Assembly: GCA_977017645.1 (NCBI GenBank)
Contig: OZ360222.1
Location: 206,956,001 to 207,020,000, forward strand
Length of the DNA: 64,000 bases
DNA from: Torpedo marmorata
Lineage: Eukaryota
Direction: 5' to 3'
Part shown: positions 6,714-55,300 of the stretch, piece after piece
How the letters are laid out: each line of letters opens with the position of its first letter
How positions within the stretch are numbered: position 1 is the first letter of the stretch
Notes under the pieces: model-generated
What the model saw: the letters and a program-made list of their open reading frames with translations, nothing else
The model's database searches: none
What the model was told of the DNA's origin: nothing
Translations under genes and position numbers: made by a program

Positions 6714-7099
6714 AGCTAGATGATGCCACTATACCCACTGACCAGTGTGGTCAATGTTTCTCAGTTTGATATTTTGCTCATCTTCTTGGGATTTCAGGAT
6801 ATTAGAAACTTTTGTTACACATAAGAAATTGCTCATTGAAGTTCGGTCAGCACAGAGAAAATACCTCCACCAATCACAGTCACTCCCTTCCATTATCTGG
6901 GCTCCAAGTCTGAATCAGTTGGTTTCAGCATGGTTTGCAAGGTGGTAATTCTTCAGCATAAACTTAGCTTGAATAATCATGAGGCAATCATGAATTGTGT
7001 CCTTCTGTCCACTGATGCCGGATGGAGTTCTGGGCTGCATATATTGGTGAGCTGGATCAGCCATTCTCAACCTTCTTTTGGCTATGGCCCACTTAGGAT

Positions 7100-8717
7100 T
7101 CTGCTCAAAGAGCGAAGAACCACCCCTCCGCACCCCTACGTCCCCTGATGATCCCACCCTGTCCGTATCTGAGGATGAAGTGCATGCTGCCTTCAGGAGA
7201 GTTAAACCGAGGAAAGCACCTGGCCGAGTATTAAAGATCTGTGCTGATCAACTTACCGATATCTTAAATATCTCACTCCAGCAGGGCGTGGTACCCACCT
7301 GTTTCAAACAGGCGTCAATCTGCCTTAATGACTATCGACCAATAGCACTTACATCAACAGTGATGAAGTGTTTTGGAAGGCTGGTGATGAAGCATATCAG
7401 CTCCTGTTTGAGCGGTGACATGGATCCATTCCAGTTCACCTATCGCGGCAACAGGTCTACGGCAGATGCCATCTCACTGGCTCTACACAAAGCCCTGGAA
7501 CACCTGGACAGCAAAGATGCATACATCAGGATGCTCTTTATCGACTACAGTTCGGCATTTAACACCATCATCCCCTCAAAACTGATCAACAAACTCCAAG
7601 ACCTGGGGGTTAACACCCCACTGTGTAATTGGATCATGAATTTCCTCACCTCCAGACCACAATCAGTGAAGATTGGTAAGAACTTCTCCTCCACAATCTT
7701 CATCAGTACCGGAGCACCACAGGGCTGTGTTCTTAGCCCCCTGCTCTACTCACTTTACACCTACGACTGTGTAGCTCAGTATGACAATAACACCATCTAC
7801 AAATTTGCCAACGATGCCACGGTAGTAGGTTGTATAAAGGAAGGGGATGAGTCAGCATACAGGATGGAGATTGAAAACCTGGCTGAATGGTGCACCAAAA
7901 ACAACCTTGCACTCAATGTCACCAAAACTAAGGAGCTGATTGTTGACTTCAGGAAAGGAAAGCCAGAGGTATACAATCCATGATCATTGGGGGATCAGAG
8001 GTGGAGAGGGTGAGCACATTTAGGTTCTTGGGAGTCACTATCTCGGAGGATTTTTCATGGACCCAACACACCAATGGCATCGTGAAGGAAGTACGTCAGC
8101 GCCTCTACTTCCTCAGAAGTTTCCACCACAGATGTGTGGTGGAAAGTGTGCTGACCAGCTGCATCACGGTCTGGTATAGGAACACCAATACCCCTGAGTG
8201 TAAAGCCCTCCAAAAGGTAGTGGACACAGCTCAGGGGACATTACTGGCAAAACCCTCCCCACTATTGAGTACATCTACAGGGAACGCTGCCGTCGGAGGG
8301 CAGCAGCAATCATCAAAGACCCACACCACCCAGCACACGCTCTGTTCTCGCTGCTGCCATCAGGAAAGAGGTATAGGTGCCACAAGACTCGCACCACCAG
8401 GTTTAGGAACAGCTGCTACCCCTCTACCATCAGAATCCTCAACGACAAAGTCAAATCAGAGACTCATTTAAGGACTCTTACTCGTGCACTTTATTGATTT
8501 TTCTTTGCTCTCTCTGTATTGCACAGTCAGTTTCATTTTCATTTTCAGTTTCATTCGTTACCTGTTACAAGTTCTTTTGATTGTTTACATGTTTACGCTG
8601 TGTACAGTTCACTTTTTGCACTACCAATTAGTGGTAGTTCTCCTGCGCCCGCAGGAAAAAGGAATCTCAGGGTTGTATGTGACGTCATGTATGTACTCTG
8701 ACAATAAATCTGAAATC
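7100..8717 (+). mobile_element. 5'-truncated Rex1/Babar non-LTR retrotransposon (RT pseudogene plus 3' UTR)
   Basis: ORFs 7078-7983 and 7980-8471: [46 protein letters not shown](D), FLGVTI; 3' end gacaataaatctgaaatc. Confidence 0.92.
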
Positions 8718-10270: not shown

Positions 10271-11014
10271 AGCAAGGTAAGATGCTCAGAAAAAGGCCTT
10301 GGTTCTCCCATGGAAAGCTCCATGTTTGCAGGATTGTCTTCCACTCGGTGACTCCTTGCTCTGGGCTTTGGTGAAAGGGCATTCAAAAAATTGGACACAT
10401 CAAATTGGTATTTGATCAGCAGGGACTGGATGCAAAGATTCTCCTGTTGCTTCCCCCATGCACGGATGGAGATAAGTCACAATACATTCCCATTGGTGCA
10501 TGCTGTCACGGAAGGCCCCAAGAGCTGACAACTGACCTTGCTGATAGATCTTAGAAATTGGACATAAACTTCAGATCATGTCGTCACTGCCAAGGCCAGC
10601 TTTCATTGCCCAAACCTAATGGCCCATCAGAAGGTGATGGTGGGTGTAGACCTCCCTGAATTGGACCTGATGACTGTGAAGGAAAGATGACATATTTCCA
10701 AGTCAGTGTGGTTTACAAGTTGGAGTATTCTCCAGTGAGTGAAGCCGTATCTTTGTCTGCGGATTTGGGCAAAGCTTTCAGAGAAGCCAAAGTGAGGAAA
10801 TGTGGATTGTTTAGTAGATGGTATATCCAGTAACTAAGTGCGCTGGTGATGGAAAGAATGAATGTGTAGGGTGGTGTCCTACAAGCAGCTTAGAGCAATG
10901 GACTTCACAAGGTAAAATAAAACTGCAGGTTCATTAAAATACCATGACTGATACTAGTTTAAAATTTGTGAGGAAGATGTGAATTAATTCAGAATACAAA
11001 GTGGTATTGTATTG

Positions 11015-11453
11015 TAGGAGGTTCACTAGGATGATTTCAAGAATGAAAGGGTTATCATATGAGGAGCGTTTGACAGCTCTTGGCCTGTACTCGTTGCGAA
11101 TTTAAGAGAATGAGGAGGGATCTCATTGAAAGATTTGGAATGTTGAAAGGCATAGACAGAGTAGATGTAGAAAGGTTGTTACCCATTGCGGGAGAGTCCA
11201 GGGCAAGAGGGCACAACTTCAGGATTGAAAGGCGTCTGCTTAGAACAGAGATGCGGAGGAATTTCTTCAGCCAGAGGGTGGTAAATCTGTGGAATTTGTT
11301 GCCACAGGTGGTTATGGAGGCCAAGTCATTGGGTGTATTTAAGGCAGAGATTGAGAGGTTCTTGATCAGCCAGGGCATCAAAGGTTATGGGGAGACGGCC
11401 GGGCAGTGGGGTTGATTAGGGAAATGGATCAGCTCATAATTAAATGGCGGGGC
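11015..11453 (+). mobile_element. CR1 LINE 3' fragment, tail truncated
   Basis: ORF 11080-11415 RMRRDLIE...RARGHNFRI...RNFFSQRVVNLWNLLP is the CR1 ORF2 C-terminus; the 3' UTR stops abruptly at aatggcggggca. Confidence 0.9.
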
Positions 11454-11513
11454 ATCTTTATTGTTTGTTATTTTCTTCAATGATTTTATCTGCTCCATTA
11501 TCCTCCTGCTGTT

Positions 11514-11760
11514 GGGTGTGGGGATGTGCGTGTGTGGGGGTATGCGTGTGTGGGGGTGTGCGTGTGTGGGGGTATGCGTGTGTGGGGGTGTGCGTGTGTG
11601 GGGGGGTGCGTATGTGGGTGTGTATATGTGGGGGTTGTGTGTGGGGGCATATGTGTGCCCATATTTTTTACCCCCACATGCCCCACCCCCCACCACACAC
11701 CTCCCACACACACATCCCCACACTTGCACCCCCACACACGCACCCCCTCACCCCCCCACC
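11514..11760. repeat. GT-rich minisatellite (unit about 16 bp, gtgtgggggtatgcgt) followed by a CA-rich mirror tract
   Basis: Direct reading; G-run arm 11514-11650 and C-run arm 11670-11760. Confidence 0.85.
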
Positions 11761-11976
11761 TGGAGAGTGAGGGGCTGGGGTGAGGTGTGGGCAGTGGCGT
11801 ATCTAGGGAAAATAGTGCCTATGGCAAGCACTGAAATTGCACCTCCCCCTGGTGGGGATGCGGTGTGGGGAGCTGGGGATGCGGTGTGGGGAGATAGGGA
11901 TCGGTGTGGGAAGGCGGGGGTCGGCATGGGGAGGTGGGGATTGAAGAGGGGACTGATCCATCTGTGCCTCCGGCAG

Positions 11977-12247
11977 TCCCAGGGTTCCAACAGCAGTGCC
12001 GTTAACCCCTGCCACTTGCATAAGCCCCAACGACTTCCTCTCCCAGAGCCACGTCTTCGCAGGTCCCTGCACCCAGGACATGCAGCCGGCTGATTACTTC
12101 CCCGGCACCACCGTCACCTTCAGCGGCTCCTCCAACCCAGCCAGATGCCACCGCGCCGTCATTGCCATCTTCGACTTTGCCTCCTGTGACCGCGGTGACT
12201 GCGGTTTCAACAATGTCTATCAGCCACCCCTGACTGGAAACTTCCTG
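11977..12247 (+). pseudogene. Isolated exon of an ecto-NTPDase (ENTPD1/2/3/8, GDA1_CD39 family), frameshifted
   Basis: Acceptor cctccggcag at 11976 and donor gtaagt at 12248. Translation SQGSNSSAVNPCHLHKP/NDFLSQSHVFAGPCTQDMQPADYFPGTTVTFSGSSNPARCHRAVIAIFDFASCDRGDCGFNNVYQPPLTGNFL matches the NPC..PCT..G.+P..C..F.F..C..C.F..VYQPP..G.F exon of cell-surface NTPDases. Length 271 nt = 90 codons + 1. Confidence 0.85.
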
Positions 12248-12263
12248 GTAAGTTTCTGCGCAT

Positions 12264-12360
12264 CCCCCGTGACCCCCTGCAGGGACGGGGAACCCCCGTG
12301 ACCCCCCTGCGCGGATGGGGAACCCCCGTGAGCCCCCTGCACTGACGGGAAATCCCTGTG
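12264..12360. repeat. About 30-bp GC-rich tandem repeat (ccccgtgaccccctgc...ggggaa), about 3.3 copies
   Basis: Direct reading, just downstream of the ENTPD donor site. Confidence 0.85.
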
Positions 12361-13661
12361 ATGGTGTGGGAACATACTCGAGAGTGAGAGGCTGGAGTGA
12401 GTGTATAGAACAAAGCATTCACTGCCTGCGAGAACGTAATACGTCACTCAGGACGTCACTGCTGGAGGCTGGGTCCCCCTCTGCTCCGCAATACGGGTAG
12501 GCAATGTGAAAGGGCGCACGGAACCGGGTTTTCTTGGTCCAGTGTGAACGGCCCTACCGGTATTTCAAAACGGGTTGTTCACACGCCAATTTAGCAGGTT
12601 TCCAATGTGAAAGGGGCTAGTATCTACCATTCCTAGTTTGATTCAGAATCCTGCTCACAGGTCACACACATATTCAGAAAGACCCCGGGCTAAGGTTTTA
12701 CCCTAAATGTGGTGGCTCCCACAGTGCAGAACTCCTTCAGTGTGCACTGTGGTGTGGGTCTGGGATTTTTTTGTTGTTGATTATAAAGCTGTGAGTTTTT
12801 ATCAACTGAAATATTTTTTCATGGTATTCTACTCAAAACAAAATTGAGGTAGGTAAGCCAAGAGCTTACTAAACTGTCTGAAAGGACCTGAAGCAAAATG
12901 ACAGGTTTTAATTTTTATCATTGCGATCAGCTTTGTTAACGAAGAATCCTAGCACATTAGAAAATTATTACTTGGATACGATGTATGTCATACTGTAGCT
13001 GTGATGAGTACTCACTTATCTTGTTTTAAGAAATGCGAGTCTTTGCCTTTGTAGGTAAAGATTTTTGTGTATTTTGCACATGACTAGAAATTGAATATTG
13101 AATCCTGAAAGACATTAAGGGTTTGCTATTTGTAAAGACAGAGTGTTTGCTGGACAATCTGACCTTAATGTATTTGCCTGAGATTCCTTTGTCTACAGTA
13201 GTGGAGGGGTTAACTTGGTTTAAATTTTTCTTGACATAACATGCACAATGATGCCTTTGGCTAATATAATCTGCAGTCATTTTTAGGTTTTGTATTCTGA
13301 CTGAACAAGAGACTTTCTTCTGGCCCAAAACACGTCAGTGTGGACAGCGTAGAGGGGCTATTGAAGAATACAGCAGAATGTAGATATGGGCAGAGATATG
13401 GCAGATGGAGGTTAATCTGGACAAGTGTGAGGTTTTGCACTTTGGGAGTTCAAATGTAGCGGGAAGATACACCAAGAGTTCGTCTATTCTCTCTCTGTCC
13501 GCTCCCCTACAGTGCAGGACTATGAACAGCATTGATGTGCAGTGTGATCTGTGGGTCCAGGTCCATAGCTTCCTGAAAGTGTCCACACAAGTGGATAGGG
13601 TGGTAAACAAGCTATATAGTGTGCTTGCCTGCATTGAGTATAAAAATAAGGAAGTCATGTT

Positions 13662-15446
13662 CAAAGTCAAAATTCAAATTTATTGTCAGAGTAGAAACAG
13701 GACGTCATGTACAACCCTGAGATTCTTTTTCCTACGGGCCAGACAGTTATTGGTAGTGTAAACTGTACTCAAGAAAAAGATACATATACAAAAGAGAGAA
13801 ATTTAAACAAAAAAAGAAATGTCAACAAACTGACTGTGCAAATACAAAAAAATAAATATTCAGTAATAGAAAATGTGCAAAGTGTGAGTCCTCTAATGAA
13901 TCTCTGATAGGAGTTTGATGGTGGAGGGATAGCAACTGTTCATGAATCTGGTGCTATGAGTGTTGTGGCACCTATACCTCTTTTCTGATGGCAGCAGTGA
14001 GAACAGAGCATATCCTGGGTGGTGTGGATCCTTGATGATTGCTGCTGCTCTCCGATGACTGCATTCCATGTAGATTTTCTTGATGATGGGGAGAGTTTTG
14101 CCTGAGATATACTGGGCTGTGACCACTATATTTCCACTCAGAGGTATGGGGTGTCCCATAAGGGTGTGATGCAGTCGGTCAGCGCACTTTCCACTACACA
14201 TTTGTGGAAGTTTGCCATGGTGTCCGATGTCATTCTGAACCTCCACAAACTCCTGAGGAAGCACAGGCGCTAATGTGCTTTCTTCACGATGACATTAGTA
14301 TGTTGGGTCCAGGAAAGGTCACGATAGTGACTCCCAAGAATTTAAAGTTGCTCACCCAATGATCACTGGATCTAACCCTAACCCTCTGGTTTTCCCCTCC
14401 TAAAGACTACAATCAGCTCCTAGGTTTTAGTGACATTGAGTGAGAGGTTGTTGTTAGTACACCATTCAATCAAGTTTTCAATCTCCCTCCTGTATGCTGA
14501 CTCATCGCCCCTTTTTATGCAGCCCTCTACTGTGGTAACATCAGCAAATGTGTAGATAGTGTTCTTGTCGTACTGAGTTCTCTGGTTATAGGTGTAAAGC
14601 GAGTAAAGCAGGCGGCTAAGTATGCAGCCCTGTGGTGCTCTGGTGCTGATGGAGCATCCGGATGTATGCGTCTTTGCTGTCTAGGTGTTCCAGGGTTTTG
14701 TGTAGAGCCAGTGAGATGGCATCTGCCGTAGACCTGTTGCTGCAGAAGGCAAATTGAAATGGATCCATGTCACTGCTCAGACAGGAGCTGACATGCTTCA
14801 ACACCAGCCTCTCAAACCACACTCCGGAATAATTGAAGCCTGGTTGAAACAGGTGAGTACCACGCCCTGTCAGAGTGAGATGTTGAAGATATCCATGAAA
14901 ACACTGGCCAGTTGGTCAGTACAAGTTTTCAGTACTCAGCTGTGTCCTCCGTCCAGACCGGATGCTTTCCTTGGATTCACTCTCCTGAAGGGAGCCCGCA
15001 CGCCATCTTCGGATGCTGACAGTAGAGTATCATTAGGGATCATGAACGTGCGCAGAGATTCTTCCTTGTTCTGTTGGTCAAATTGGGCGTAGAAGGCATT
15101 GAGTTCACCTGGGAGTGAAGATTTGCTATCTCCTATTGCACCAGATTTGGTTTTGTAGCGGTTTATGTCATTTAGGCTCTGCCACAGCTGTTCGGTATCC
15201 CTCATTGTTTCCATTCTCGATGGGAATCTCCACATCGCCTGGGAGATTGCTTTCCATAGGTCGTACCTGCACCTTGTGTAGTATTCTGGATCTCCAGACT
15301 TAAATGCCTGTGATCTGGCTCTCATCACGTTCTGGATTTCATTGTTCATCCAGGGCTTCTGTTTATGGAAATCCTGAACAATTTGGTGGGGACGCACTCA
15401 TCCACAGCTGTTTTGATAAAGTCTGTAATGGCCCTGGTGTAATCAT
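13662..15446 (-). mobile_element. 5'-truncated Rex1/Babar LINE inserted in CR1
   Basis: Minus-strand ORFs 14936-15397 (QKPWMN, ELNAFYAQFD), 14616-14822 (DPFQFAF, STADAIS) and 13893-14264 (IIKDPHHPG); 7-bp TSD tcatgtt at 13655-13661 and 15447-15453. Confidence 0.9.
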
Positions 15447-22893: not shown

Positions 22894-22895
<2 letters not shown>

Positions 22896-23864
22896 CCCTT
22901 TTCACACTGGCTAACCTGTAAATTGGCCGTTCAGTGAACCGGTTAAAGAAGCCGTTTTTGCTGTTCACACTGGACCACTGTTAACCGGTTCTCTGCGTCC
23001 TTTCACACTCACCACCAGGCATCCCCGGGGAGAAGGGCGCCTATCCTCCACCGGTGACGTCTGAGTGATGCATCGAGCGAAGGCGGGCCTGCCCTCCCAG
23101 AATTCTGTGCGGCAGAGAAACCCTTCCATGAGTGCTCCGTGCATACAGCCCTTTCTCTGCCGCACGGAATTCTGGGAGGNNNNNNNNNNNNNNNNNNNNN
23201 NNNNNNNNNNNNNNNNNNNNNNNNNNNNNNNNNNNNNNNNNNNNNNNNNNNNNNNNNNNNNNNNNNNNNNNNNNNNNNNNNNNNNNNNNNNNNNNNNNNN
23301 NNNNNNNNNNNNNNNNNNNNNNNNNNNNNNNNNNNNNNNNNNNNNNNNCCCACTTCGTTGTGTGTGTGTGTATTTCATCCCCGCTGTGACTTTCCCACGG
23401 TCTTTATAAATTGTGCGCCTATATGTTTTATTGCCGCTACCACTTTCCCACGGTCCTTTATAAATTGTTTTATACTGTGCTGTACATAATGCTTAATTAT
23501 GTTATAATGGTTAGGCATGATTAATTTTGTTTAAATACAAGATCATAATACATTGATCAGGATTTAGTAAATTGAATACAAAGTTTATACCTTTTTAATC
23601 TTTTGTATCCTTCACGTTCTTGCACTCACGCAAAAACGTCATCAACGCGTCATTACTTTGTCCCTGGATAGTCCATGTCCCTTTCACACTGGGCTAATCA
23701 ACACGCAGGCATCAGATGACCCTGGGGATGATACACCCTACCTAGGCGGTCCATCCCCGTGGTGATTTGACGCCTGCGTGCCGATTCGCGAGCGTTCACA
23801 CTGGCCCTTTAACTGGTATATTGGCCGTTAATTACTAGGATAAGGTGCCAGTGTGAAAGGGGCT
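22894..23864. mobile_element. PIF/Harbinger-like non-autonomous DNA transposon inserted in (GA)n
   Basis: TIR agcccttttcacactggc / gccagtgtgaaaggggct (17/18), repeated ttcacactgg subterminal motifs, flanking aga/aga. Confidence 0.82.
23180..23348. other. Assembly gap (169 N)
   Basis: N run immediately after a hairpin at 23093-23179. Confidence 0.99.
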
Positions 23865-45349: not shown

Positions 45350-45680
45350 TGGTGAGAGCGAACGAGCGAGCGAGGGCGGGGAGAGCGAGTGGGCGAGGGC
45401 GAGCGAGTGAGATGGCGAGGGCAGATAGTGAGTGGGCGAGGGCAGAGAGCGAGCGGGCGAGGGCGGGGAGCGGGCGGGCGGGGAGAGCGAATGGGCGGGG
45501 AGAAAGTGGGCGAGAGCGAGCGGGCGAGGGCGAGGCGAGCGAGTGGGAGAGAGCGGGCGGACGGAGAGAGCGAGCGGGCGGGCGGGCGGTGAGAGCGGGC
45601 GGGCAGGGAGAAAGCGGGCGAGAGCGAGCAAGCGAGCGGGCGGGCTAGGAGAGCGAACGGGAGGGAGAGAGCGAGCCTTC
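45350..45680. repeat. Purine-rich (GAGC/GGGC)n low-complexity tract
   Basis: Direct reading. Confidence 0.9.
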
Positions 45681-48280: not shown

Positions 48281-51200
48281 ATGGAGACGGTGTGGAGGCC
48301 CAAGTACTTAGACATCGACCCCAGCTCACCAACAGCTGCCAAGGAGTGGTGACACTGGCGTATGACTTTCATGAACTACGTCGACGACTATAGGGACAAG
48401 ATACCGAACAAGTACAGAACACTGTGTGAGCTGCAATGTTTTCGAATACATAGAAGGATGTGAAAATTTTGACTCAGCTATCTCTAAGTTGGACAGTTTA
48501 TATATGAAAACTCCCAATGAGGTTTTTGCCAGACATTTACTGGCTACCAGGCAGCAGAAGCCAGGAGAATCATTAGCTGATTTCTTCAGGGAGTTGGAAA
48601 AGTTAAAGAGAAACTGTAATTTTCGAGATCATAGTACAGAGCAGTGTGGTAACGAGGCAATGTGTTACACGTTCATCGCTGGCATTGCCTCACCTGCAAT
48701 ACGCCAGCGTCTCTTAGAAAACAAAACACTGGATTTACAGACTGCTTATAACCAAGCTACTGTGTTAGACGTAGCTCAATGCACTAATGATGCATACGCT
48801 ACCCCGGCAGCCCATACAGCTGTAGTAGTGAACCCTGAACCACCACAGGTACCACAGGTGTGTGAGAAGGATTCTTTAGCAGGGCTGCCTGATAACCTTC
48901 CAGTTGCTCTTGAGAAACCAGCTGTGGCTGTCACTTATAATACAAAACGGAAATGTTTCTTCTGTGGTTTCTCTTACCATTCACGGGATAACTGTCCAGC
49001 CCACGAGGCTACTTGTAATAAATGTGCCAAGAAGGGACATTATGCCCAGGTGTGCAAATCCAAGGCCTCACCAAGCTCAGTGGCAACAGTGGTCAATTCT
49101 CATGTACTGGCTACACTTATTAATGTGCCACAAGGACTCGCTCAAGCTGCAATCTTTGTGACTGTGAATGGTAAAAGGTTAAGTGCTCTGTTGGATTCAT
49201 GCAGCACTGATAGTTACATTAGCGAGAAAGTCACGCGGGAACTAAAACGAAAGGTTCACCCATCCAGTAAAGACATTACTACGGCTCAGAAAACTTTAAA
49301 CACTAGTTCCCAAGGATATCTTGTTGTTGACCTAACTCTTAGTCTTAATAGCCAGTCATACGCTGCCACACGACTTGATGTATTGAAGGACCTATGTTCT
49401 GACTTAATACTTGGCCAGGATTTCCAGCGCCAGCATCTGAATGTGAAATTTGAATACGGAGGACCCTTGTCTGAGCTAACTGTGAATGGTGCTGACCATT
49501 ACTGTGCACTGACAGCAGCAAAAATAGAAGAGCCTTCCCTTTTTCCAAACTTATCACCAAGCTGTAAACCAATTGCTACCAAATCAAGACGCTTTAGCAA
49601 AGATGATCAGCACTTCATTGCAGAGGAAATTCGCCAATTACTTTCAGAAGGCATAATTGAGACGAGCATATCACCATGGCGAGCCCAAGTGGTAGTGGTG
49701 AAGGATCCTACCCACCAACACAAGAAGCGAATGTGTGTGGATTATTCACAGACAATCATTCAATACACAGAATTGGATGCTTACCCCTTGCCAAGGATTG
49801 ACAAAATGGTGAACGAACTTGCAAAATATAGTGTTCTCTACCTGCGACCTGAAAAGTGCCTACCACCAAGTGTCACTGAAGGAGTCAGATAAGAAGTATA
49901 CGGCTTTTGAAGCCAATGGACGTTTATACCAATTTTGTAGGATTCTATTTGGAGTCACAAATGGGGTAGCCGCCTTCCAGCGTGCTATGGACAAGTTAGT
50001 TAGAGAAGAAAAACTGCAAGGTGCCTTCCCTTACCTTGATAATATCACTATTGCTGGACATACACAAGAGGGACATGATCAAAATATAACGAAATTCCTA
50101 AAGACCATCAGTCAGAGACACCTAACACTTATTGATTCATAGACTGTGGAGTCTGTGAATTCCATTAATGTCCTTGGGTACTGTGTGGGGAATGGTATCA
50201 TTAAGCCAGATCCTGAGAGACTTCGCCCACTACAAGAGCTTCCTCCACCAGAAAATTTGCGATCCTTAAAAAGGGTACTCGGGATGTTTGCTTATTATGC
50301 CAAATGGATTCATGGGTTTTCCAACAAGATTCAACCGATGGTAAATACAGAGAAGTTTCCAATGGAGGAAACGGCCCTGAACGCCTTTAACTTACTAAAG
50401 AGAGAGTTTGAGGAAGCCACCCTGCACTCGGTGGATGAAAACTTACCCTTTGAGGTAGAGTGTGACGCATCTGATGTGGCTATTTCTGCTGTCCTTAACC
50501 AAGGAGGACGGCCTGTTGCATTCATGTCAAAGACGCTACAAGGAAGTGAATTGCACTACCACATTGTAGAGAAAGAAGTGACTGCCATCATTGAGGCAGT
50601 GCGCAAATGGAGCCACTTTAGCTTGGTTACTGATCAGAAGTCAGTGGCCTTTATGTTTGACAGTAAAAAGCGTACAAAGATAAAGAACGCAAAGATTCAA
50701 GAATGGCGGCTGGAACTTGCAGCATTTAGTTACACAATAAAGTACCGTCCTCGGAAAGAGAATGTGGTCCCTGACGCATTTAGTCGGGCGTACACTTGTT
50801 CAGCCTTTACTACCTCCACACTCGCTGACATTCACAACGGACTTTGTCGTCCAGGAATAACTCGGCTGCTGCATTTTGTTAGAGCAAAGAATTTCTACTT
50901 TTCTACAGAAGATGTCAAGAAGACTTGTACTTTATGCAGGGTCTGTGCTGAACTAAAGCCTCAATTCTACCACCCACCAGGAGGGACTCTTATCAAAACA
51001 ACAAAACCTATGAAACGGCTTAGTATTGATTTCAAGGGACCTTTGCCACAGCTTCGCATAACCCATATCTACTTACAGTAGTTGATGAATACTCGCATTT
51101 CCCCTTTGCCTTTCCATGTCCCAATATGCATACTACAACAGTGATCAGATGCCTGGATCTGCTATTTAGCCTATGCGGAATGCCAAATTACATACACTCT

Positions 51201-51866
51201 GATCGAGGCACCACCTTCGTGTCTAAGGATCTGAAAGATTATCTCTCCCAGAAGGGGGTTGCCACAAGTCATACTACCCCATACCACCCAATCGGGAATG
51301 GACAGGTAGAGAGTTTCAACGGCATCATATGGAAGGCAGTCCATTTGGCCCTTAGATCACGTAACTTGCCCGAGAAGCATTGGGAACTGGTGCTTCCTGA
51401 GGTACTACACTCCCAAAGATCGCTGTTGTGTGCAGCAAGAAATACTACACCCCATGAAAGTTTTTTTGCATTCCAACGCCGCTCATCCCATGGAAATTCA
51501 CTGCCCTCCTGGCTAATGACCCCTGGACCCATACTACTAAGAAGGTTTGTGAGGAGTAACAAGAACGAACCACTTGTAGATCAAGTTGAACTCCTTGACA
51601 GTAATCCAACATATGCAAACATCAGGTACCCAGATGGACGGGAGTCTACTGTGTCTGTTCGTGAATTGGCACCTTGTCCAGAAGCCCAGGCAATCCCCAC
51701 ATCTCCTATTGTGGAACAAGATAAACGAAATCTGGTAGTACCAATACGAGAGGAGGAGGAAGATATGACATACCATAGTGTGGAGGATGATGAAACAGTC
51801 GCTCCACAAGAACTAAGGAGATCCGGTCATGTATCAAAACCTCCCAATCGATATGGATGGGAGTAG
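48281..51866 (+). pseudogene. gag-pol polyprotein pseudogene (Gag with two Zn knuckles, protease, RT, RNase H, integrase), disrupted by stops and frameshifts
   Basis: METVWRPKYLDIDPSSPTAAKEW*; CFFCGFSYHSRDNC and CNKCAKKGHYAQVC; ALLDSCS; LDAYPLPRI, YLDN; ECDASD, EKE; IHSDRGTTF, GNGQVESFNG; no chromodomain or env. Confidence 0.93.
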
Positions 51867-52339: not shown

Positions 52340-55300
52340 TGGGAGGCGGCGCGACGTAGCACGCAGCGGCCTCTCCAAGACCGTTTGTTTATTTTTATTT
52401 TTTAGTTATATAGCGTTAAATAGTGTGTCTAATTTTTTATAAAACACATGTAATATGGTTACCCAACGCAACTACAACCTCCAGTATTTAATGATATTCA
52501 GAAACTCCTCTACTTACCTCCGGGAAGGTCTGCGGGTCAAGCTACGCGACCACGGGCTGTTGCGGGGACTAGGCCTTACGGCCTCGGGATTGCGGAGAAG
52601 ACGGAAGCGGTGCGTGAGGTGGAGGAAGCGCGGTAAGCGAGCAGGGGTTCGCGCTAGGCTGAGAGCGAACCCCTGCCGCCCGGCTCTCCAGTCCATCCTG
52701 CTCGCCAATGTCTGTTCCCTGGAGAACAAAATGGACCACATCCGACTCCAGAGGTCTGCGTAGCGTGAGTACAGGGACTGCTGTGTTTTGGTCTTCACTG
52801 AAACGTGGCTCAGCGACAGAGTCCCGGACGCCGCCATTTAGCTGGATGGGCTCACTTTATTTCTGGCTGACAGAGATGCTGCTCTGAGTGGTAAAGTCCG
52901 AGGCGGTGGCTTGTGTGTTTACATCAACACAGAATGGTGTAAGGACTCTGTATTATTCTCCAGTCACTGCTCAGCACTGGTGGAATTTGTGACTGTCAGA
53001 TGTAGACCATTTTATCTACCGTGGGAATTCACCACGGTCCTCATAGTTGGAGAGTTCATCCCCCCCAGCACTTACGCTAAGGAGGCGATCTTGGAACTGT
53101 ATGGGGCTATAAGCGAACTGCAGACCACACACCCTGTTGGACTGTTTATTATCGCTTGGGATTTCAACCAGGCGAACCTCAAGTCAAGGCTATCTATATT
53201 TCATCAGTATGTGGACTTTGCTACGAGAGGGACGAACGCGTTGGACCTTGTGTTTACGAACATTTCCGACGCGTATCGGGCAGAGCCCCGCCCCCCACCT
53301 CGGATACTCAGACCATATCTCTGTAATACTAACCCCAGCATACAGACTGCTCATCAGACGCTCCAGACCAGTTCTGAAGCAGGTTTAAACCTGGCCAGCG
53401 GGAGCCATCCATGCACTTCAGGACTGCTTCGAGCGCACTGACTGGCACATGTTCAAGGAAGCAGCAACCGATGGAGACTGCATCAATCTGGAGGAGTATA
53501 CGGCATCAGTGACTAGCTACATTAGTAAGTGTACTGACGAAGTCACTGTGCCCAAGACCATCATTACTCGCTCTAATCAGAAGCCATGGATGACTGTGGA
53601 GATGTGTGTGCTGCTGAGGAGCCGAGACTCTGCCTTCCGAGTGGGCGACAAGGTAGCCCTAGCTATTGTGAGAGCCAAGCTGTCTTAAACCATCAGGGAG
53701 GCAAAGCGTGTGCATGCCCAGTGAATTCATAGTCACTTTCAGGACAGCAAGGACACGCAACGCATGTGGAAGGGCATTCAAGATATCACCAACCACAAGA
53801 CCACACCATCTGCCTGTGCTGGTGATGCCTCCCTCCCAGATGCACTGAACAACTTCTACGTGCGTTTTGAGGCGAAAAATGATGTGGTGGCGAAGAAGAC
53901 CACCTCTCTAAATGATCAGGTGCCATGTCTTACAGTGGCCAATGAGAGTGTTAGGCAAGGTCGACCCACAGAAAGCTGCTGGTCCGGATAACATTCCCGG
54001 CAGAATGCTCAGGGGATGTGTAGCTCAGCTGGCAGATGTTCTCACCGACATCTTTAACATCTCCCTGAGCAGCGCCGTGGTTCCAACGTGCTTCAAAGCC
54101 GCCACCATTGTTCCCGTGCCGAAGAAGTCATCAGTGTCCTGCCTCAATGACTACCGCCCTGTCGCACTCACGTCTATCGTCATGAAGTGCTTCGAGAGTC
54201 TCGTCATGGGGCACATCAAGCTCTTGCTGCCCCCCTCACTGGACCCCCTGCAGTTCGCATATAGATCCAACTGCTCTACGGACGATGCCATCGCCACTAC
54301 CCTCCATCTAGCCCTCACCCACCTGGAAAATAAGGACACGTATGTTCAAATGTTGTTTATTGACTTCAGTTCGGCATTCAACACAATCATACCTCAGTAC
54401 TTGATAGGGAAGTTGAGCCTGCTTGGCCTAAACACCTCCCTCTGCATTTGGATTCTTGACTTCCTGACGGGGAAACCTCAGGCAGTCCGGATCGGAAACA
54501 GCACTTTCAAGACCATTACACTGAGCACAGGCCCCCCCCCCCAGGGCTGTGTGCTTAGTCCATTGCTGTTCACTCTGCTGACTCATGACTGTGCAGCAAA
54601 ACACAGCTCGCACCACATCATCAAGTTCGCTGACGATACGACTCGTCTTATCAGCAAGAACGATGAGTCAGCGTACAGAGATGAGGTGCAGTCGCTAATG
54701 GACTGGTGCAGAGCCAACAACCTGCATCTGAATGTTAATGAAACAAAAGAGATGGTTGTCGACTTCAGGAAGGCCCGGGGGGATCACTCTGTTTCTTGGT
54801 GTGCACTTGGCAGAGAATCTCACCTGGTCCCTCAACACCAGCTCCATAGCCAAGAAAGCCCAGCAGCGCCTCTACTTCCTGCGAAGGCTTAGGAAAGTTC
54901 ATCTCCCACCCTCCATCCTCACTACATTCTACAAAGGATGTATTGAGAGCATTCTGAGCTATTGCATCACTGCCTGGTTTGGAAACTGTACTATCTCAGA
55001 CCGTAAGACCCTGCAGAGGATAGTGGAGTCAGCGGAGAAGATCATTGGGGTCTCTCTTCCTACCATGACGGACATCTACAACACACGATGCATGCGGAAG
55101 GCAAATAATATTGTGAAGGACTTCTCACACCCCTCTTGTAAACTTTTCTCCCTTCTGTCGTCTGGAAGGAGGTACCGTAGCATTCGGGCCCTCACGTCCA
55201 GATTGTGCAAAAGTTTTTTCCCCCAAGTCATGATGCTCCTCAATTCCTAGAACATATGTGTACTAGTATATCATGGATTTTTATTGTATTATGACTTAAT

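Follow-up and report, generated by a model that had tools for sequence, protein, structure and literature searches.

The window, that is, the whole 64,000-nucleotide stretch of DNA analyzed here, contains at 11453-12618 a transposon copy that carries a whole ENTPD-type coding exon together with both of its splice sites and parts of the adjoining introns. The exon, which lies at 11977-12247 between an AG acceptor (11975-76) and a GT donor (12248), stands out in composition, with a GC content of 0.60 and a CpG o/e of 0.68 against 0.41 and 0.38 for the window, and the DNA contributed by the ENTPD donor was confined to 11851-12362. The features discussed below are the following.

11000..11454 (start approximate), + strand: 3' part of a LINE forming the left flank, compared with one full-length LINE end
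11453..12618, + strand: left-truncated, exon-carrying, non-autonomous PHIS/Harbinger element, family consensus positions about 761-1870
11453..11791, + strand: remnant of the transposon left arm, found in empty elements and not in the parent gene
11516-11751, + strand: GT-rich/CA-rich tract within the transposon left arm
from 11762, + strand: one 38-bp internal unit of the left arm
11785..11791, + strand: left one of the two GTGTGGG copies (7-bp duplication) that flank the cargo; the 8-bp site GGTGTGGG runs from 11784
11792..11849, + strand: 5'-terminal ~58 bp of a hAT-like element; family with 8-bp TSDs and 1,966 genome-wide pattern matches
11851..11976, + strand: captured ENTPD upstream intron, with 20-bp minisatellite remnant, pyrimidine tract and AG acceptor
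11977..12247, + strand: captured ENTPD2-like coding exon, 271 nt in the window copy and 270 nt, phase 0-0, in the family and the parent
12014..12033, + strand: copy-specific patch of clustered substitutions with a net gain of one base (frameshift)
12248..12362, + strand: captured downstream intron, from the GT donor through what remains of the 30-bp minisatellite to the variant last unit of the parent array
12364..12370, + strand: right copy of the 7-bp duplication GTGTGGG
12371..12618, + strand: transposon right arm with subterminal TGTGAA motifs and a 19-bp TIR at 12600-12618
12619..12621, + strand: presumed right target-site copy AGT, deduced from the 3-bp TSDs of the family; the left copy is gone with the truncation
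22894..23864, - strand: related MITE of a different family, without the exon, with both TIRs and the TSD AGA inside an (AG)n tract

The window copy begins at consensus position 761 and lacks both about 760 bp of the left arm and the left TIR, a truncation that leaves it no longer mobile. Its left edge abuts a LINE, the two sharing the 2-bp microhomology CA at the join; compared with one full-length LINE end, this LINE lacks its last ~50 bp, and we infer that a deletion removed the LINE end and the left arm of the copy. The frameshift patch (about 8 substitutions and one extra base) matched the genome only once, which ruled out a subfamily origin, and no template for it was found within the window at up to 3 mismatches; it represents either a clustered mutation event or a local assembly error. 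The donor motif GTAAGT was likewise specific to this copy, the parent and the family having GTACGT.

The preliminary description had presented a GC- and CpG-rich ENTPD exon in AT-rich DNA, and the composition, the borders, the ENTPD identity and the phase 0 (for the 270 nt of family and parent) were all borne out, although the GTAAGT donor that it listed is peculiar to this copy. What it took for a 1-nt frameshift in a C-run near 12025 is the extra base of the copy-specific patch, family and parent being in frame. Its minisatellite-bearing intronic flanks hold within 11851-12362, but the tract at 11516-11751 belongs to the transposon and 11792-11849 to the hAT-like end; the right TIR is real, but the element at 22894-23864 said to share it is only a relative of the exon carrier (71-73% over the arms); and the left edge is a truncation. 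A Helitron/Helentron reading of the copy, based on its TC...CTAG ends, was rejected because other copies extend 760 bp leftward to a second TIR. Among 150 of the 169 window open reading frames of at least 75 aa, a domain scan returned retroelement domains only, at a length limit that short host exons could escape. The window further contained LTR-retrotransposon frames for protease, reverse transcriptase, RNase H and integrase (48375-51863), pieces of LINE reverse transcriptase (7051-7980, 14423-14680 and 53912-54889), and a GC- and CpG-rich island (o/e 0.97) built of a 21-bp-type tandem repeat (45363-45676).

The family to which the window copy belongs is non-autonomous and 1.4-2.2 kb long, with 19-bp TIRs starting AG, 3-bp target duplications, and a consensus of 1,870 bp built from 11 two-TIR copies. 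Across all fetched loci, the 3-bp TSD was exact in 11 of 22 two-TIR elements, agreed at two of three letters in 9 and at fewer in 2; the exact TSDs were TAA, TAT, ATT and AAT (two each), ACA, ACT and AAA, and the target read WNW, followed by G in 42 of 55 distinct right flanks. Arms shared with empty elements lie on both sides of the non-transposon DNA, and the window copy keeps both in part. A short TIR starting AG, a 3-bp TSD and related elements that encode DDE and Myb/SANT ORFs are PHIS features, the superfamily being defined in the available part of Han et al. 2015 (PMC4482050) by short TIRs starting A or G, a short TSD, and a DDE transposase plus a Myb/SANT ORF. The strict TWA target of PIF/Harbinger was not seen, the consensus being WNW. 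Pangu, to which the same partial source ascribes an ANT TSD, a TIR starting AG or GG and a second ORF without known motif (a point on which the paper is inconsistent), fits in TIR start, and several TSDs of the partner family are ANT, but just 5 of 11 exact TSDs of the exon carrier were ANT and the second ORF of the partner family described below has a Myb/SANT domain; NuwaII (TNA target between C and G, TIR starting GG) fits in the flanking G but differs in TSD (WNW) and TIR (AG). Because the TSDs match none of TWA, ANT or TNA cleanly, the family was placed at the level of the Harbinger superfamily only. A possible partner family of 3.8-4.5 kb, with 3-bp TSDs and with DDE_Tnp_4 and Myb_DNA-bind_4 on opposite strands, resembles the exon carrier in just two places, TIR bases 1-14 and a single 61-bp subterminal patch (77-85%); the copies of this autonomous type that were seen contain stops. 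A two-ORF PHIS family (L180-L184, L190, L192) combined AG-starting TIRs, mostly ANT TSDs and a Myb/SANT ORF, a mix of Pangu and PIF/Harbinger features as these are defined in the available portion of PMC4482050.

The donor of the exon was an ENTPD gene on another chromosome than the window (C2, about 99.80-99.81 Mb). A PF01150 search of the genome found ENTPD exons at C2:99.805-99.812 Mb, directly upstream of the parent exon (L024), which is in frame, 270 nt long, and set between a 1.2-kb array with a 20-bp unit and a 1.1-kb array with a 30-bp unit; five further coding exons were found upstream and downstream of it. The parent locus matched the family consensus solely over positions 987-1613, the consensus exon differed from it at 11 of 270 positions, and comparison with the consensus revealed no transposon-arm or hAT match in the 40 kb around the parent exon. 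In its main frame the exon matched rat NTPDase2 at E 5.6e-12 and NTPDase1 at E 3.3e-7, and Pfam GDA1_CD39 at E 2e-4, below the curated cut-off; a homolog search using the exon peptide gave no match. The upstream parent exon scored 89.6 bits to NTPDase2 and 73.6 to NTPDase1, two exons in all scored better to rat NTPDase2 than to NTPDase1, and NTPDase3 and 8 were absent from the matches; by similarity the parent gene may be called ENTPD2-like.

A 1,989-nt spliced contig of sequencing run X1 (presumed RNA) aligned to 11973-12248 and extended on both sides into neighboring parent exons. It departed from the window sequence at both splice sites, allowing 4 and 1 shared letters, and was without the extra base at 12014; it fixes the splice sites for the parent gene and has no bearing on the copies. 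The X1 sequence shared 7 of the 11 parent-specific exon bases, and 3 of these 7 are CpG losses relative to the consensus, which suggests that the family consensus is ancestral and that the capture predates the split from the lineage of X1.

The 6.2-Gb genome yielded 178 candidates in an exon search, 40 of which were scored and, except for the window itself, lay at 88-92%; the 30 loci fetched comprised 29 transposon copies and the parent gene. Near-complete exons were aligned from 42 distinct insertion loci, with duplicates and rows of more than 40 deleted bases left out, in a sample chosen by likeness to the exon that favors complete copies. A 25-mer from the exon, which would catch 31 of these 42 copies, had 124 genome matches at up to one mismatch, about half of them from one amplified insertion (about 63 copies): all 20 small-contig copies tested share one flank, and of 71 matches to the junction between hAT end and donor DNA, 61 lay on small contigs and 2 more bore the same signature. 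With this insertion subtracted, we estimate 80-115 independent insertions. Segmental duplication of the gene as the source of the family was rejected, as the flanks are distinct; it holds only for the amplified small-contig insertion. In a derived subfamily (69 matches, all on large contigs), what remains of the exon is its 3' part, and 10 bp past the donor site lies another insertion of the hAT-like family whose end opens the cargo; at loci of this subfamily (L128, L129, L137, L145, L147, L149, L155-L179), the exon was progressively lost from the 5' side.

The small-contig amplification concerns a 174-kb unit present in ~60 repeats of 98-99.7% identity (C468: L193-L197, L228-L240; about 60 other small contigs), with a repeat period of 173,986 bp at 99.74% identity. 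Each unit carries one exon-bearing element, a long 41-bp satellite, retroelement pieces and the first coding exon of a choline-dehydrogenase-like gene (L228:798-1532; PDB 9lq0, E 6.5e-52). Amplification of that whole gene was rejected, its C-terminal exon having a single genomic match, elsewhere (C22), and an Rfam scan of 150 kb gave no match. The repeat is a macrosatellite-like amplicon.

These counts and the parent locus bear out the core of the preliminary description, namely that a Harbinger-like element captured its cargo at the DNA level from a GC-rich donor: the parent has the same introns, and two-TIR copies have distinct 3-bp TSDs. Retroposition, which it had set aside, disagrees with the presence of both introns and the lack of poly(A). 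The copy count that it proposed returned at least 42 distinct insertions, two-TIR versions with 3-bp TSDs among them, and the search for a parent and its breakpoints led to the C2 gene and to consensus positions 987-1613. The exon is not single-copy, the TIR does not lie in the donor intron, and no ENTPD gene is present at the window; the genome-wide PF01150 search, a strict first look that sets a floor, listed no other ENTPD exon in or near the 64 kb, and on this ground the window as a piece of an ENTPD gene was rejected.

How the exon entered the element can be read from copies that lack it. A right-arm pattern had 145 genome matches, and the 30 loci fetched comprised 20 with the full exon, 4 with cargo remnants and 6 that were empty. 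At the insertion point, two of the empties (L101 and L119) read GGGGTGAG-GTGTGGG-AACATAC, and the filled copies read GGGGTGAG-GTGTGGG, cargo, GTGTGGG-AACATAC, so that 7 bp were duplicated and no element sequence was lost. The empties lay farther from the filled consensus, at 11-21 differences in ~243 bp, than did the filled copies, at a mean of 4.2%. The first 58 bp or so of the cargo are the 5' end of another family, whose right end lay within 1.5 kb at 6 of 30 loci and was not seen at the remaining 24; elements with both ends had 8-bp TSDs at no more than one mismatch in 5 of 6 cases. Such 8-bp TSDs are a hallmark of hAT transposons, and the assignment as hAT-like rests on them and on the short TIRs. 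Many filled copies have since deleted the hAT end. The cargo duplication, at 7 bp, is one short of the 8-bp hAT TSD. At the other side of the cargo, the junction falls in the variant last unit of the parent 30-bp array, five bases before TGTGGGAA, which also starts the right arm; where hAT end and donor meet there is an uninformative microhomology of 1-4 bp of C/G-rich sequence, and at the right junction only near-microhomology. The 30 fetched junctions between hAT end and donor, from the total of 71, all lay in transposon context and represented 9 independent insertions, the rest being the one amplified insertion. An exact-pattern search for an intermediate with a whole hAT element at this site had no genome matches.

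The hAT-like family was also active alongside, as its second insertion founded the derived subfamily. Of the first 30 loci, 9 have in their left arm another element, with TAGGGTGGCCA ends and an 8-bp-like duplication, indicating that hAT-like elements entered the carrier family repeatedly. The hAT-like family (L126 and others; compare window 23040-23180) has internal sequence in common with Harbinger-type small elements, and pieces were thus exchanged both ways.

The nested hAT end, missed by the preliminary description, probably explains the capture. We consider it reasonably likely that the window holds a truncated, frameshifted copy of a multicopy PHIS/Harbinger exon carrier, that the exon was captured from the ENTPD locus during repair after excision of a nested hAT, and that a Harbinger-type transposase spread the cargo as a neutral passenger. 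The starting point would be an empty element with one GGTGTGGG site, of a kind that still exists in the genome. A hAT element would have inserted at GGTGTGGG and duplicated 8 bp; upon its excision, abortive repair would have copied about 58 bp of the hAT end, then switched template to the GC-rich ENTPD intron and copied the exon along with the 20-bp array before it and the 30-bp array after it, and finally connected to the right flank one base into the duplication, perhaps aided by TGTGGGAA, which in the parent lies 5 bases past the breakpoint. Excision-triggered gap filling is described for P elements in the accessible part of Tan et al. 2021 (PMC8277862), and that of PMC3260210 suggests break repair after excision as the source of Ds gene capture. 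The filled element is found at many loci with distinct 3-bp TSDs; its mover may have been the local two-ORF Harbinger-type family that shares the first 14 TIR bases. Copies then acquired nested insertions, deletions and about neutral substitutions, and the left end of the window copy disappeared. With copies about 4% from the consensus, the event is old, and the order of steps is deduced from one junction pair.

The same relay of two transposons, with a different place of capture, would result if a Pack-hAT containing the exon had arisen first and inserted into the Harbinger element, generating an 8-bp TSD, and a later deletion had then removed its right hAT end along with one base of that TSD. 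The exact start of the cargo at the hAT end and the 7 of 8 bp on either side of it agree with this, and maize Ds elements carry exon-intron fragments according to the part of PMC3260210 at hand. We regard it as unlikely nonetheless: no free Pack-hAT appeared among the fetched junction matches (the other 41 being of the small-contig, amplicon type), all 42 exon copies have at least one Harbinger arm, and an extra deletion is required that ends within 1 bp of the TSD edge. A hAT transposase would be dispensable if replication template switching (FoSTeST or simple gap filling; Tan et al. 2021) had stitched a hAT scrap to the ENTPD segment, leaving the 7-bp duplication as a switching scar in G-rich repeats. 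This is distinctly unlikely given that the left junction coincides with base 1 of the hAT TIR, that the right junction is no more than 1 bp away from the expected start of an 8-bp TSD, and that no element sequence was lost, even though both donor breakpoints are in minisatellites, the target is a tandem 38-bp unit, the right junction shows the TGTGGGAA near-microhomology, and one copy lies 190 kb from the parent (about 0.6% by chance given 100 copies).

The 42 aligned copies differed from the consensus at a mean of 10.6 of 270 positions (2.6% at non-CpG sites), and 54 of 181 distinct non-CpG changes were synonymous where 46.6 were expected, which is neutral decay within error. Acceptor AG, donor GT and frame were intact, with no stop, in 13 of the 42 copies, the window copy being among the broken ones. 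From these substitution patterns the copies look like decaying passengers, not working exons, and the exon shuffling that had been envisaged found no support: changes are about neutral, the window copy is frameshifted, and no chimeric transcript appeared, the sole contig placed being of parent type. We give almost no credence to the idea that some copies serve as cassette exons or regulatory RNA and thereby helped the filled form outnumber the empty one (24 to 6 among the 30 right-arm loci), since the 13 intact copies and the slight synonymous excess (ratio 0.82) that speak for it are set against an excess of about 1.3 standard deviations, 29 broken copies of 42 in a sample picked by likeness to the exon, a single placed contig that is a parent-type transcript, and a derived subfamily that dropped most of the exon.

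The copy 190 kb from the parent, at C2:99,988,000-99,991,300 (L035/L036), has the family junctions and arms that have aged normally (4.1-4.2%). Of the 11 parent-specific bases of the exon, however, it shares 9; its upstream arrays are long and parent-like, and its private changes amount to just 2 substitutions and a 10-bp deletion. That it is an unmodified founder was rejected, because its arms are as old as those of other copies while its exon has just the 2 private substitutions; by its pattern of differences, the exon was likely overwritten recently by gene conversion from the parent. The copy itself sits within a relative from the same transposon family that lies in inverted orientation. 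A bolder reading, in which the hAT-to-Harbinger relay built a vertebrate exon carrier comparable in scale to those of plants and took a splice-ready symmetric exon to about a hundred sites, one copy still exchanges with the parent, and at least one intact copy is spliced into a host transcript, appears highly improbable.

How TIR transposons capture host DNA is still debated, with gap filling, FoSTeST, end bypass and fusion of neighbors all under discussion. Here, the parent, the empty progenitor, the filled family, the derived subfamily and the footprint of a second transposase are all in one genome, and with these stages surviving side by side the capture steps become readable from the junctions. 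A copy number far above that of the animal multicopy Pack-TIRs in the available part of the published survey suggests that, among vertebrates, genomes of the cartilaginous-fish type with active DNA transposons correspond to Pack-MULE-rich plants. With 13 intact symmetric exons dispersed over the genome, exon shuffling is open to a direct test by RNA-seq; absent evidence of splicing, the element is neutral cargo and an annotation trap that can yield false ENTPD paralogues.

By its arms flanking host DNA, its parental copy outside transposons, and its several loci with distinct TSDs, the element is a Pack-TIR. Gisby and Catoni reportedly described Pack-PIF families in maize in 2022. The available part of Tan et al. 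2021 (PMC8277862) lists 370 animal Pack-TIR cases, 4 of them multicopy and none in elephant shark; its multicopy examples have 3-5 copies, e.g., Pack-hAT-N8_XT of Xenopus tropicalis and Ssk-FB4 of Drosophila, and its Supplementary Data 1 contains 21 PIF-Harbinger cases, in frogs and alligator. Like those multicopy Pack-TIRs, the family described here is a non-autonomous TIR element with host DNA inside, an identifiable parent, distinct TSDs and a GC-rich cargo; unlike them, so far as that part of the survey goes, it comprises no fewer than 42 independent insertions and carries an entire coding exon together with its two splice sites, its empty progenitors survive, and a nested hAT end marks the junction. 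Maize Pack-PIF, in the portion of PMC8903248 available, shares the Harbinger-superfamily carrier and the high copy number (cluster 18 has 72 filled and 52 empty elements), whereas capture there was proposed to proceed by fusion of neighboring insertions in a plant, and the cargo here was cleanly inserted in mid-element. Maize Ds2 and Ds-l4, as far as presented in the accessible text of PMC3260210, also join hAT ends to exon-plus-intron filler, with an origin suggested in excision-break repair, but they retain both of their hAT ends and are mobilized by hAT, whereas the present unit retains one and was spread by another superfamily. Bat Helitrons (PMC4224331, partial text) are likewise vertebrate DNA transposons that amplify captured exons and introns; they are rolling-circle elements with neither TIRs nor TSDs, unlike the present element, which has both. 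The literature searched, mostly without subscription papers, contained nothing on this element or on a vertebrate relay from hAT to Harbinger. The animal Pack-TIR class is thus already known, and what is unusual here is the copy number in a vertebrate TIR element, together with a hAT-to-Harbinger relay that can still be read.
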